A DNA stretch of 64,000 nt from NCBI GenBank assembly GCA_018814875.1, contig JAHIYH010000041.1, positions 13,958-77,957 on the forward strand, in the 5' to 3' direction. Below the pieces are notes generated by a model. It had not been told where the DNA came from. It made no database searches and saw nothing but the letters and a program-made list of their open reading frames with translations. This document shows, piece after piece, positions 43,971 to 48,320 of this stretch. This DNA is from Patescibacteria group bacterium (GTDB taxonomy: Bacteria; Patescibacteriota; Gracilibacteria; Peribacterales; Peribacteraceae). The first letter of the stretch is position 1, and each line of letters starts with the position of its first letter. The position numbers and the translations under genes were made by a program.

Positions 43971-46667
43971 ATGTCCATCAGATTACTAAAAGTACGACCT
44001 GCCAAAGAAGATGAACGCGAAAAGCAGACACATCGAGGTCCGCTCTATATGGAGCCGGCGTTGGCTGCATTACATTCACTTAAAGGAACAGATAGAGAAG
44101 TCAGCTTAGAGATTGGAATGGGACGCGATGGGAAGATTGGTTTTTTTGTAAGGGGAAGTGGTCGCGGTACACGTTTGGCGGAAAGCCAGATCTATGCTCA
44201 GTATCCTGATGTTGATATAGAAACAATTACAGAGGATCCTTTTGTACCAAATGCAGATGAAGAAGTAGTAACGGTAGATTTGTGTCTCACAGATCCGGAG
44301 ATTTTCCCTATAAAGAGACATCCACAATTTGATGATCTTCTCACTCGTACAAATGTTGATCCTATTGCAGGTATCACATCGACGCTCTCTCGTTCATTGG
44401 TTCCCGGTATGCGCGGGCATGTTCAAGTGGCTATAAAACCGCTCACGGGAAGTTATCGCAGACGCGCTCTCAGATTCATTCCTCTGTTACAAAAGGGATT
44501 AGCATCAATTTCGGTTCGTTATGCTGCTTTATTTACACGTATGCAGTTAGCGCGTGGATGGAGACGTGTGGTACTTTTGCCAGTAGCTTTCTTTTTGGGA
44601 GGATTTAGAGCGTGGCCTGGATTCAGCAAATTCTTCACAACACCAGTGAACATAACTACGGGTGAAATATTTACATCTGATCCGGAAGAGGAGGATATGC
44701 AGCGTGCAAGTGCGCGTTCGCATGATCGTGAGAATTCGGTTGCTGCCGCGCTCGATAAAGTGAATCGTTTACTTTTCCTGTGCAATGTACGTATAAGCGT
44801 GATTGCTCCTAAGGGGCACACTGACGAGGCACGTGCTCAGATTGATGAGATTGTTGGAGGCTTTAGGCAATTTGCTCTTCCTAATTGCAATGCATTGAAA
44901 GCTAAATCTGTTAAGCAGAGTTCGAATGTTCCATATGGAATTAAGGAACATCCTTTCATTCTTTCGGTAGAAGAAGTGGTTACCCTGTGGCACATTCCAA
45001 CTGTTCTGGTTAGAACTCCAAATATTGATTGGGTGCTAAGCAAGAAACTTGAGCCGCCTATCAATTTACCTATATCGACTGATAAAGATGTGACGACCCT
45101 TGGTGAGGCAGTCTTTCGTGGAGAGCGTTCTCAATTCGGTATTTTACCGGATGATCGTCGTCGACATATCTATTGCATCGGAAAAACTGGAATGGGTAAG
45201 TCAACGCTTTTGGAAAATATGATCTTTAGTGATATTCACGAAGGGAAGGGGGTAGGTGTTATTGATCCGCATGGAGATTTGATTGACGCCATTCTGCAGT
45301 TTATTCCAAAAGAACGATCGAATGATATTATCCTGATTGACCCCGCAGATCGTGACTTCCCAATTTCTTTTAATATGCTGGAGGCAACAGGTCCCGATCA
45401 GCGACCTATAGTCGCATCAGGTCTGATGGGTGTTTTTACAAAGCTTTGGCCAGATGTTTGGAGTGAACGAATGAAGCATATTCTAAGGAATACCCTTCTT
45501 GCACTTTTGGAATACCAAGGTTCCTCTATGCTTGGAATCATGCGTATGTTTGCGGATGATGCGTATCGCACTAAAGTTGTTGATAAGATTACAGATCCAC
45601 TCGTCAAAAGTTTCTGGAAAGATGAGTATGAACAATGGTCCGAGAAATATCGAACGGAGGCCATCTCAGCCATTCAAAACAAAGTGGGTCAGCTTCTTTC
45701 TACTCCCATAATGCGTAACATTGTCGGGCAGGTAAAAAGTAGTGTGGATATTAGGCATGCAATGGACACAGGGAAGATTGTTCTTGTTAATTTGAGTAAA
45801 GGTAAGTTGGGTGAAGATGTTTCCGCATTTTTAGGATCCATGCTCGTCACAAAGTTCCAAATTGATGCTATGAGTCGGGCAGATATTCCAGAAAAAGATA
45901 GACGTGATTTCTACCTATATGTTGATGAGTTTCAGAACTTTGCAACTGAGTCGTTTGCCACGATCCTCTCTGAGGCTCGCAAATATCGCCTCTCTTTGAC
46001 TATGGCGAATCAGTATGTGGCGCAACTTTTGATTGATGATAAAAACACCGCTCTTCGCGATGCAGTATTTGGAAACGTTGGTTCCATTATCAGCTTCCAG
46101 GTGGGGAGTGATGATGCAGAGGAGATGAGTTTGCAGTTTGAAGAAATGGTGACTGCTAAGGACATTTTGAGTTTGCCTAAGTATCACGCGTATGCACGTG
46201 TGATGATTGAAGGTGTTCCATCTAAGCCTTTCTCGGTTACCACACTTCCTCCTCCTCAGTTTAAGCAGGATCCAGGTCGAGTAGATACATTCAGGAGCCT
46301 CTCGCGTGAGAGATATAGCAAATCTCGAGTAGAGGTTGAGGGTAAGATTATGAAGTGGGCGCAGTCTGCTGCAGAAGGTAGAAAGGATGCTAAGAAGGCT
46401 GGTAAAGCAAAAGAGAAGGAAGAAGAAGAACTTAAGAAAGCTCGCAAAAAGGGTATGAAGTTAGATGAATACCGCAAATGGCGGGATAGAGAGATGTGGC
46501 TGAATGATTTTAATATGATTCGTAAAAAGAACTTAATGGGAGAGAAGCTTAACGAAGATGAAAAGAAGGAGATGGCAGAACTAGAGAAGAAGCTCAAGGA
46601 TAGTGGGGGAGTGCCGGAGCTGAGTAAGACGTTGCTTCAGATGAAAGAGAAAAAGGAGAGAAAGTGA
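43971..46667 (+). CDS. P-loop ATPase of the TraD/VirD4 (type IV coupling protein)-like / FtsK-HerA superfamily with an uncharacterised ~390-aa N-terminal region
   Basis: Walker A GKTGMGKST, Walker B FYLYVDEFQNF, and a C-terminal Lys/Glu coiled coil. No other T4SS genes lie nearby. Confidence 0.75.
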   Translation: MSIRLLKVRPAKEDEREKQTHRGPLYMEPALAALHSLKGTDREVSLEIGMGRDGKIGFFVRGSGRGTRLAESQIYAQYPDVDIETITEDPFVPNADEEVVTVDLCLTDPEIFPIKRHPQFDDLLTRTNVDPIAGITSTLSRSLVPGMRGHVQVAIKPLTGSYRRRALRFIPLLQKGLASISVRYAALFTRMQLARGWRRVVLLPVAFFLGGFRAWPGFSKFFTTPVNITTGEIFTSDPEEEDMQRASARSHDRENSVAAALDKVNRLLFLCNVRISVIAPKGHTDEARAQIDEIVGGFRQFALPNCNALKAKSVKQSSNVPYGIKEHPFILSVEEVVTLWHIPTVLVRTPNIDWVLSKKLEPPINLPISTDKDVTTLGEAVFRGERSQFGILPDDRRRHIYCIGKTGMGKSTLLENMIFSDIHEGKGVGVIDPHGDLIDAILQFIPKERSNDIILIDPADRDFPISFNMLEATGPDQRPIVASGLMGVFTKLWPDVWSERMKHILRNTLLALLEYQGSSMLGIMRMFADDAYRTKVVDKITDPLVKSFWKDEYEQWSEKYRTEAISAIQNKVGQLLSTPIMRNIVGQVKSSVDIRHAMDTGKIVLVNLSKGKLGEDVSAFLGSMLVTKFQIDAMSRADIPEKDRRDFYLYVDEFQNFATESFATILSEARKYRLSLTMANQYVAQLLIDDKNTALRDAVFGNVGSIISFQVGSDDAEEMSLQFEEMVTAKDILSLPKYHAYARVMIEGVPSKPFSVTTLPPPQFKQDPGRVDTFRSLSRERYSKSRVEVEGKIMKWAQSAAEGRKDAKKAGKAKEKEEEELKKARKKGMKLDEYRKWRDREMWLNDFNMIRKKNLMGEKLNEDEKKEMAELEKKLKDSGGVPELSKTLLQMKEKKERK

Positions 46668-46699
46668 AAAGTTAAAAGTGAAAAGTGAAAAGTTAAAAG

Positions 46700-46808
46700 T
46701 TAATCCGTGTAATCCGCTTAATCCATTTAATCCGCCTGCCCTTCCGTAGCCCAGCCTGCCCCTCGTAGCCAAGAGGCGAAGTGGGGAGGCGAAGGAGGGT
46801 GATTCAGA
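46700..46808. mobile_element. REP/MITE-like element E3 (forward core; right terminus GTGATTCAGAC)
   Basis: TAATCCG word arm, then the core CCGTAGCCCAGCCTGCCCCTCGTAGCCAAGAGGCGAAGTGGGGAGGCGAAGGAGGG, then the terminus. Confidence 0.55.
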
Positions 46809-46836
46809 CATTTTGGCTACAATTAGACAAATAATT

Positions 46837-46866
46837 TAGTTAAGTAATTGCGCAATTACTTAACTA
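46837..46866. promoter_or_regulatory. Perfect 30-bp palindrome TAGTTAAGTAATTGC|GCAATTACTTAACTA
   Basis: I verified that the two 15-nt halves are exact reverse complements. Its function (operator or hairpin) is unknown. Confidence 0.4.
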
Positions 46867-47166
46867 GTTATGACCTTTCGCACGAAAGGTATCAAAGGTA
46901 TCAACAGTAAAAAGTTTGCTAGGATGATTAATCAAATCAAATTTCCATTTTCTCAATCAGATAGTTTTGTTTGTTGTACGTTTTTTTCCATCCATCCACA
47001 GACCCTCCTCCGGAAGAGGGGTGGAGCTATGTTAAAAGTAGAAACAGGTTTTTTATTTGTATAGCAGAGCTCCATTTCCTTTATATGTGAAGGAAGGGGT
47101 CGCTTGTCCACCGTAGCCCAAAGGCGTAGGCGGAGGTGATGGAGGTTTTCACAGACAATCAAAAAA

Positions 47167-47193
47167 GACCAGAAGAAACCTCTGGCCTTTTTT
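47167..47193 (+). terminator. Terminator-like hairpin with flanking A and T runs
   Basis: The stem CCAGA/TCTGG has a 7-nt loop. It is preceded by AAAAAA and followed, after CC, by TTTTTT. Confidence 0.45.
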
Positions 47194-47238
47194 GTGTTTG
47201 TGTCTTGCTCCCTTGGCTATCAGAAGTATTAATACCGC

Positions 47239-47768
47239 TGAGCCTATATTATTTGAGGAAGCTGACTGAGAGGAGGAGCTCTCTAGCCTCTGCCTTGCTT
47301 AGGTTTCTTGTTTCTCCTCGCAACCGAACGAAGTCCCCGGACCAGGTACTCAAGGCAATGCACAAGGCAAAGGAGACCATGGGGAGTAAGGGATGCATAC
47401 CGCTAAGCGACCTCTCATCAACGGTACGTCATCACAGAGCAGAGAGGATGGGAGCCGTCCTGACCCGTGAGTTAAAGCATTTCCAGTTCCTCAGATAGAA
47501 CCTAAGTAATAAAGGTGGGTGACTGAGCGGAGATGCAACTTACAGGACCCGTTTGCGTCCGGTGCGTCCTCTCGAGAGGGTCGCACTAGGCGTCAATGGG
47601 TGTTAACCACCTTCGCCGAGGCTATGGTGGGCAAGGGGGGATTGGCTCCCCTCCTATCTACTCTTGGCCTGTCCCGCACAGATGAGAGTGGTGCGGGGTG
47701 GCAGCGGTGGTGTGAAGGATCTAAAGTGTTTGTTTGGTGGGGGGCGCCCCCCGTGTTTGTTTTTGTCT
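47239..47768 (+). ncRNA. Unassigned large structured RNA candidate (RNase P RNA-like boxes; identity unproven)
   Basis: This is a gene-free, visibly G+C-enriched segment.
- Possible promoter: TTGCTC-16-TATTAA (47205-47232).
- Strong + strand terminator: a GC-rich stem within GGGGGGCGCCCCCC (47739-47752) followed by a T-rich tract to about 47768.
- Boxes in RNase P order: GAAGCTGAC (47258), CGAAGTCCCCGG (47329), AGTAAGGG (47385), AGATAGAA (47493) and ACAGGACCCG (47542).
- I could not build a convincing P4 helix. Confidence 0.35.
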
Positions 47769-48030
47769 TTCTCTCTGTGTCTGATTTGTCCTGTTGTTTT
47801 TGTTATGAACAAATCCGCACATATTACGCATTCATCCAAAGGTGTGCAACTTTTACCCATAGCCAAGGGCTCAAATGCGTTTTGTGAATACATTTTGTGT
47901 ACGGTAATTAACCTAATGAATTTGTTGCTCTAGGATCTATTGAATGGAAATAAAAGAAATAAAGGCAATAAAAGAAACAGAAGAGTTCTCCTATATTGCT
48001 TTTATTTAATTTATTGCTTTTATTACATTT

Positions 48031-48165
48031 CTAATACAATCTAATCCATTCCATCGATCCTCCTCTTTGCTTGTATTCATACTGTGCAGCCTCCATATCT
48101 AAACGTGCTTCATCCAAGTTTTGTTGTGCTTCAATCATGTCTGACCATGCATCGTAGTACTTCAT
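48031..48165 (-). CDS. Small hypothetical ORF (44 aa), below the ORF-track cutoff
   Basis: ATG at 48165 and TAG at 48033-48031, encoding MKYYDAWSDMIEAQQNLDEARLDMEAAQYEYKQRGGSMEWIRLY. It is bracketed by word palindromes, as real genes in this window are. Confidence 0.3.
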   Translation of the reverse strand: MKYYDAWSDMIEAQQNLDEARLDMEAAQYEYKQRGGSMEWIRLY

Positions 48166-48167
48166 AC

Positions 48168-48320
48168 AGCTATCAACATTCAACAATCAACCTTCAACAT
48201 TCAACCTTCAACATTCAACAATCAACATTCAACATTCAACCTTCAACAATGTTGTTGATAGTTGAAAGCATAGCGTGTTGATAGTTGATTGTTGCTATGA
48301 TAGTTGATTGTTGCTAGTTG
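48168..48320. repeat. Intergenic word palindrome (CAACATTCAAC vs GTTGATAGTTG)
   Basis: Tandem words are followed by reverse-complement words. Confidence 0.85.

Follow-up and report, generated by a model that had tools for sequence, protein, structure and literature searches.

Locus and host genome

The window analysed here, 64,000 nt in total, is taken from contig JAHIYH010000041.1 (positions 13,958-77,957 of the forward strand, assembly GCA_018814875.1) of a Patescibacteria group bacterium of the family Peribacteraceae (Gracilibacteria; Peribacterales), a tiny and uncultured bacterium belonging to the Candidate Phyla Radiation (CPR). Downstream of a gene for a TraD/FtsK/HerA-like ATPase, the stretch from 46667 to 48031 had been regarded in a preliminary description as gene-free, with a G+C-enriched segment encoding a large non-coding RNA (ncRNA) of uncertain identity on the plus strand. 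Only short open reading frames (ORFs), the longest of 120-122 amino acids (aa), were found between 46668 and 48030, and none of the four ORFs tested showed a Pfam match. The G+C content across approximately 47200-47800 was 0.50-0.585, compared with 0.31-0.37 on either side. The region folded at energies far below those of shuffled controls and was conserved in relatives. Of the preliminary description, the absence of genes, the base composition and the reading as a large ncRNA of uncertain identity were reproduced, the last of them strongly by conservation, covariation and the lack of any matching Rfam family. The region is likely to be the gene for a large structured ncRNA of an undescribed family, which would be read from approximately 47815 to 47161 on the minus strand.

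Conserved fold

Approximately 46 homologues had a core of about 250 nt in common, with covarying helices, and the alignments showed near-invariant blocks interspersed with hairpins that vary in both length and sequence. A covariance model, designated R1, was built from 28 copies of the 190-nt core. When 51 copies were aligned by fitting to the model, 90.4% of the cells were paired as against 41-50% in slid controls, both sides had changed in 36 of the 42 pairs, and 318 compensatory cells were counted (39-86 in slid controls). An unfitted MAFFT alignment of the minus strand with 44 copies gave a similar picture, with 85.4% of cells paired (41-50% when slid) and changes on both sides in 38 of 53 pairs, the helices P1-P3 and both pseudoknots included. 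The elements of the fold are as follows.

47783-47815, minus strand: 5′-terminal hairpin, GAUUUGUUC / GGACAAAUC, found in the minimum-energy fold
47737-47754, minus strand: hairpin rich in G+C and close to the 5′ end of the RNA, previously taken for a terminator; counterparts in other genera have no U tract
47706-47721, minus strand: conserved block GAUCCUUCACACCACC, apparently single-stranded
47673-47698, minus strand: genus-specific hairpin CCCGCAC/GUGCGGG, found in the minimum-energy fold
47644-47664 with 47436-47456, minus strand: closing helix P8, which encloses the variable insert 47458-47642
47604-47635, no strand assigned: insertion of approximately 30 nt resembling a mobile repetitive extragenic palindrome (REP), within the variable domain
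47260-47447, minus strand: conserved core (covariance model R1) with helices Hb, P7, P6, P5 and Ha
47273-47276 with 47411-47414, minus strand: kissing loop between the Ha and P7 loops, from comparative analysis
47316-47320 with 47329-47333, minus strand: H-type pseudoknot, from comparative analysis
47308-47319, minus strand: nearly invariant purine loop GAGGAGAAACAA, from the alignment
47207-47262, minus strand: 3′ junction domain with P1 (47207-47214/47255-47262), P2 (47215-47218/47241-47244) and the P3 hairpin (47221-47240)

At the 5′ end, the stem GAUUUGY/RCAAAUC of the terminal hairpin had changes in both arms across units, and block GAUCCUUCACACCACC was recovered with at most four mismatches in 38 of 46 units. 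The arms of P8 varied from unit to unit and stayed complementary in the 35 units compared, which amounts to extensive covariation; the mean duplex energy was -24.4 kcal/mol compared with -15.3 kcal/mol for shuffled controls. The insert enclosed by P8 differed widely in length among genomes. In the kissing loop the two partners stayed complementary while their sequences changed in many ways, as in the pairs GAGG/CCUC, GAGGU/ACCUC, AAUGAG/CUCAUU, AAGGAG/CUCCUU, AAGGUG/CACCUU and GAUGG/CCAUC, and in UGACCA/UGGUUA of a remote homologue. In the H-type pseudoknot, which involves P5, the CGAGG that opens GAGGAGAAACAA is paired to CYUCG, and one double change (UCCG/GGGG) was observed. Helix P1 also covaried, yet it was poorly aligned by MAFFT, with 53% of its cells paired.

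Two purine boxes, GYAGAGAGG and GGCAGAG, can each be paired with a single CCUCUCUGC box (47436-47448, 47287-47293 and 47656-47664). One CUCUGC is the pairing partner both of GYAGAG, at the end of P8, and of GCAGAG, in the outer part of Hb, and comparative support exists for each of the two pairings. The overlap would represent either alternative states or a frayed junction, and the sharing of CCUCUCUGC by the two boxes may constitute a conformational switch in the core of the RNA.

Several local features of the preliminary description were evaluated against this fold. The helix CCCGCAC/GTGCGGG at 47673-47698 was recovered, while neither of the two long-range pairings proposed there found support: 47255-47262 pairs with 47207-47214 in the covarying helix P1 instead of the proposed 47252-47258/47489-47495, and the partner segment of 47243-47253 (47505-47515) belongs, as does all of 47489-47515, to the variable insert. 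The REP-like piece at approximately 47604-47635 proved to be a real insertion; within the family of RNAs it occurred in this genome's copy only and was missing in that of the closest relative. REP-like copies of 29-33 nt were also located on another contig of the same genome (G000:C36:37241-37269) and in five relatives.

Transcription signals and strand

The signals that would delimit the gene are all on the minus strand, as listed here.

approximately 47815 down to 47161 (about 655 nt), minus strand: putative RNA gene, with ends placed according to promoter and terminator
47849-47844 (-35, TTGCAC) and 47826-47821 (-10, TAATAT) with a 17-nt spacer, minus strand: predicted sigma-70-type promoter, recognized by its sequence pattern
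47897-47913, minus strand: palindrome GTACACAAAATGTATTC, in which GTAYAC occurs twice as a half-site; distance to the -35 box downstream approximately 50 nt
47160-47194, minus strand: predicted intrinsic terminator with A-tract, stem and U6, 16 pairs, bidirectional in form

A promoter of the pattern TTGCnn-N16-18-TAnnAT was present at the equivalent place of the minus strand in 34 of 45 units, followed by the GAUUUG that begins the 5′ hairpin; upstream on the plus strand it was present in none of the 45. A run of at least five T followed the terminator hairpin on the minus strand in 44 of 45 units, and remote homologues shared promoter and terminator in the same orientation. The sequence of the terminator hairpin occurred once in the genome. 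A generic terminator type of this genome was rejected as the identity of the 47160-47194 hairpin, its sequence being unique and the form of a hairpin plus GUGUUUGU being rare. The promoter proposed previously on the plus strand (TTGCTC-16-TATTAA, 47206-47233) is situated inside helices P1-P3.

In the majority of 34 homologous units the palindrome was equally far from the -35 box, and it is probably a binding site for a regulator; a genome-wide search for a regulon of this promoter-proximal site gave nothing convincing. At 47897-47913 and the equivalent sites of relatives, the palindrome GTAYACAAAATGTATWC was kept about 50 nt upstream of the promoter in both lineages of paralogues described below. 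Palindromes of another kind flank the region at 48181-48294 and 46660-46700, where word repeats of the CAACATTCAACCTTCAAC and AAAAGTGAAAAGTTAAAAGT type gave spurious matches to microRNA models.

Apart from the transcription signals, the strand was judged by properties of the fold. Among the tetraloops predicted, GNRA or UNCG loops accounted for 28 of 113 when the minus strand was folded and for 4 of 118 when the plus strand was. RNAalifold consensus energies were lower for the minus strand in both comparisons (-34.8 vs -24.5 and -32.0 vs -25.9 kcal/mol), and the z-score of the fold was -7.8 for the minus and -3.9 for the plus strand. Alternation between G-U and Watson-Crick pairs that is possible on the minus strand only was seen in alignment A4 at columns 24-63 (GU 29, GC 12, AU 2), 136-152 (UG 23, CG 20), 236-264 and 213-277.

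Transcription from the plus strand, as assumed in the preliminary description, would yield an RNA starting after the hairpin 47160-47194 and ending at the G+C-rich hairpin and T tract of 47737-47768. A terminator-like site does exist at 47737-47754: the hairpin GGGGGGCGCCCCCC and its T-rich tract are there. What did not hold is its role, since the U-rich tail was restricted to the genus of the window, and a GU-rich tract followed the hairpin in other genera. The plus strand is also favoured by conserved G-U positions compatible with that strand only (47295-47437 and 47339-47380), by the lower single-sequence folding energy of the G+U-rich plus strand in 37 of 45 units and by a Ha hairpin whose plus-strand form was the stabler one in 40 of 44 cases. 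Against this stand, besides the tetraloops, the consensus energy, the z-score and the variable pairs that alternate with G-U, the absence of a conserved promoter in all 45 units, the hairpin directly upstream, which would terminate a plus-strand transcript, and the H-type pseudoknot (columns 136-152), in which roughly half of the copies would have a C-A mismatch on the plus strand. A plus-strand RNA thus appears unlikely, and from these sequence properties the RNA is very likely read from the minus strand. The correction of the strand bears on any probe, model or synthesis.

Known RNA families

All 4227 Rfam families were compared with both strands of 46600-48300 by cmscan at E<=10. Only chance-level matches to microRNA and snoRNA models were obtained, all of them outside the core, and the remote homologues matched no Rfam family at E<=0.1. 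A scan of the whole window at gathering scores detected three tRNAs and nothing else. Among the models proposed for this comparison in the preliminary description, those of RNase P RNA, transfer-messenger RNA (tmRNA), signal recognition particle (SRP) RNA, 6S RNA, ROOL, GOLLD and OLE all failed to match the region; the same was true at E<=10 of HEARO, raiA and the other large RNAs of Rfam.

RNase P RNA had been suggested by several short boxes in the order expected for it, and GAAGUCC and GUAAGGG do resemble conserved regions of that RNA. Neither RF00010 nor RF00011 matched either strand of the region, whereas a full-length rnpB (RF00010 model positions 1-367, 121 bits) was found on a different contig of the same genome, at G000:C29:48879-49331. 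The boxes do not build the RNase P fold. GAAGUCC is part of a local helix, P6, in which the GAAGUCCCC box pairs with a GGGGA about 45 nt away; ACAGGACCCG, the 3′ box, is part of the non-conserved insert of the variable domain, and the P4 helix, which the GAAAGUCC box would form with a 3′ box of the ACNGNNCCGGCUUA type, is not formed. In most relatives the present RNA was found in two copies, at variance with the single gene expected for rnpB, and it is most likely encoded on the strand opposite to these boxes. The RNA is not rnpB: an rnpB elsewhere in the genome, together with no Rfam match here, is the sequence-level outcome that the preliminary description had named as refuting. That it should be a diverged form or a paralogue of RNase P RNA is extremely improbable.

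Other housekeeping RNAs were rejected as well. The tmRNA gene was located on contig C60 and 6S RNA gave no match in the region. The genome's sole 6S RNA candidate was observed at G000:C68:5021-5170 (minus strand), with 32.4 bits and hence under the gathering score of 46.4. The lack of any detected SRP RNA in the genome prompted a look at SRP RNA as an identity, which was rejected because Ffh and FtsY were missing as well. In this genome, neither SRP RNA nor an Ffh M domain nor an SRP54-type GTPase (Ffh, FtsY) was detected; in 40 class relatives, no SRP RNA and no convincing SRP54-type GTPase turned up. The only SRP54-domain match above the cut-off in these relatives was a borderline and partial one of 23.3 bits in G024. 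SecY, by contrast, was found. SRP subunits are reported to be absent from many CPR bacteria (PMC8080830).

The literature searched on Peregrinibacteria, Peribacteria and CPR bacteria contained no description of an RNA of this kind, and non-coding RNAs were not mentioned in the Peribacteria genome paper. No such large RNA class was described for CPR/Patescibacteria in the literature or the Rfam release searched, and the family is new to both as far as these were searched. With a length of about 655 nt, no Pfam match, 36-38 covarying pairs, two pseudoknots and a conserved promoter and terminator, the RNA has the properties of a large, highly structured orphan bacterial ncRNA.

Distribution, paralogues and gene neighbourhood

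Besides the genome of the window, 35 Peribacteraceae genomes were searched, and 32 of them had the RNA. With 47200-47800 as query, blastn recovered it from 20 of the 24 genomes searched within the family, with two copies in several of them, and gave nothing in 16 other families of the class. Model R1 recovered it throughout both samples of family genomes (15 of 15 and 2 of 2), usually twice per genome, and detected two divergent copies in G013; it gave no match in G008, G012 and G003. Four other families of the class showed weak matches in which the order of the motifs was preserved, and no match was obtained with R1 in approximately 143 genomes from the rest of the phylum. Elsewhere in the class, the RNA is sporadic. 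An exact 25-nt core pattern occurred in 110 stretches among 185,579 species genomes; nearly all of the 80 stretches listed were labelled Candidatus Peribacteria, Peribacteraceae or Peregrinibacteria, and these labels fix the taxon.

Two diverged copies were observed in G125, which belongs to another family of the class (G125:C1:265324-265784 and G125:C1:438839-438983). Across 40 further genomes sampled from the same family, blastn gave no full-length match, and one match of 31 nt was seen in G325. This points to transfer or rapid divergence of the G125 copies.

Clustering of the neighbouring genes revealed two fixed contexts, which correspond to two lineages of paralogues, types A and B. Most family genomes with the RNA carried two paralogues, at a spacing of approximately 28-30 kb in G018 and G017. 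Type A follows gyrA, hrcA and the gene for an FtsK/TraD-like ATPase. The whole genus of the window is of type A, and the genome of the window has type A only, with the RNA convergent with the ATPase gene. Type B is located between the gene for a TPR protein and an operon in which a 450-aa gene is joined by those for SecF and trigger factor. The 450-aa protein (L041:6192-7547, minus strand, and homologues) was conserved and had no Pfam match; its gene is directly upstream of SecF, where SecD would be expected, and it may be a very divergent SecD. The ATPase gene of the window (43971-46667, plus strand) had homologues in all 151 class genomes, mostly with two to five matches each, and the best match was approximately 40-58% identical in most other families. 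The ATPase is a conserved protein of housekeeping type and not a remnant of conjugation. Because it was present in 151 of 151 class genomes, a phyletic link between the RNA and the ATPase was rejected.

The neighbourhood of type B raises the alternative of an element that controls a neighbour in cis, be it a very large leader, a riboswitch or an antisense RNA, with the gene at the SecD position as the candidate. Such a role would agree with the position of type B next to the operon, with the conserved palindrome between the RNA promoter and the SecD-position gene and with the two alternative core helices, which could serve as a switch. If read from the minus strand, however, the RNA points away from the gene at the SecD position; it also has a promoter and a terminator to itself, and type A copies, including that of the window, are without such a neighbour and convergent with the ATPase gene. 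The two contexts of the paralogues had no co-directional downstream gene in common, and a search of the genome for complementary targets of the invariant loop GAGGAGAAACAA and of block GAUCCUUCACACCACC found none beyond chance. Because of these two results, an independent gene is preferred to a leader, and cis-regulation of a neighbour is regarded as quite improbable.

A region without any RNA gene, containing decayed coding sequence, a mobile element or a site acting at the DNA level, is even less probable, to the point of being nearly negligible. Its attractions are the REP-like element inserted in the region and the sporadic occurrence outside the family, with two copies in G125 and none of full length in the other 40 sampled genomes. 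On the other side, Pfam matches were absent, indels of arbitrary length were located at the tips of hairpins, compensatory changes affected 36-38 helix pairs, gene neighbourhoods were stable, and neither a transposase nor repeat termini were present.

Proposed architecture and function

The region is non-coding and conserved, its fold covaries, its transcription signals are conserved and its distribution is centred on one family. The best explanation is a stand-alone gene on the minus strand that would be transcribed from a sigma-70-type promoter of its own, with a palindromic site farther upstream, and end at an intrinsic terminator. From 5′ to 3′, the predicted RNA would consist of the terminal hairpin, a CA-rich linker, the G+C-rich hairpin, the single-stranded conserved block, P8 with its insert and a 3′ core of approximately 250 nt. 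The core would be formed by the long-range helix Hb, the four hairpin arms P7, P6, P5 and Ha and the three-helix junction P1-P3, and it would be locked together by the Ha/P7 kissing loop and the H-type pseudoknot at GAGGAGAAACAA.

Some observations weigh against this explanation, in addition to those in favour of the plus strand. Transcription, strand and both ends have all been deduced from sequence. Two conserved helices, the end of P8 and the outer Hb, overlap on CCUCUCUGC, and the model of the core is therefore only partly settled. G008, a family genome that is 98% complete, had no match, which implies that the family does not strictly require the RNA. Finally, no finding pointed to a specific function or partner.

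As to function, we tentatively consider a trans-acting architectural RNA, either a scaffold for a ribonucleoprotein or an RNA-only assembly, that would act by way of its tertiary structure and the invariant blocks left unpaired, and not through mRNA pairing or control of a neighbour. A promoter and terminator belonging to the gene itself in each of two unrelated contexts, the compact pseudoknotted core and the tolerance of the insert domain to a REP-like insertion in this genome fit such a role better than that of a leader or of a base-pairing small RNA. A more specific proposal is rather speculative: a near-universal housekeeping RNA of the Peribacteraceae acting by its tertiary fold, which would constitute the first large 'ornate' RNA class of the CPR and could be a ribozyme, a homo-oligomer formed through the Ha and P7 loops or a lineage-specific ribonucleoprotein scaffold. 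It would include a GYAGAG/CUCUGC switch, in which the two conserved GYAGAG boxes would compete for the single CUCUGC box.

Comparison with known large RNAs

To our knowledge, large and intricately folded bacterial RNAs are rare beyond ribosomal RNA, RNase P RNA, tmRNA and introns. OLE, ROOL, GOLLD and HEARO have each opened up unexpected biology. That one or two RNA genes of 450-700 nt are kept in very reduced genomes implies strong selection. With approximately 46 aligned copies, a core backed by covariation, two pseudoknots, transcription signals and a clear phylogenetic range, the family is now ready for submission to Rfam and for structural work.

The RNase P RNA is similar in size class, in its multi-helix core with long-range helices and in a few look-alike boxes. 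The present RNA differs from it in failing RF00010 and RF00011, in having no P4, in occurring alongside a bona fide rnpB in this genome and in being two-copy in many genomes. OLE, ROOL and GOLLD (PMC12286853, PMC3413148, PMC9723947) resemble it in their 400-700-nt range, many covarying helices and kissing loops or pseudoknots, and also in being stand-alone genes of one lineage only for which a biochemical role is not established. Their Rfam models, in contrast, do not match the present RNA at E<=10, and their hosts are Bacillota, Lactobacillales and phages, whereas the present RNA has its host in the Peribacteraceae of the CPR. The present RNA further differs in having no adjoining gene for a partner protein such as oapA, and in its two paralogues per genome in fixed chromosomal neighbourhoods that are not associated with tRNAs or prophages. 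OLE, ROOL and GOLLD form homo-oligomers, as determined by cryo-EM (PMC12286853), and by analogy the Ha/P7 loop pair of the present RNA could in principle also act between molecules.

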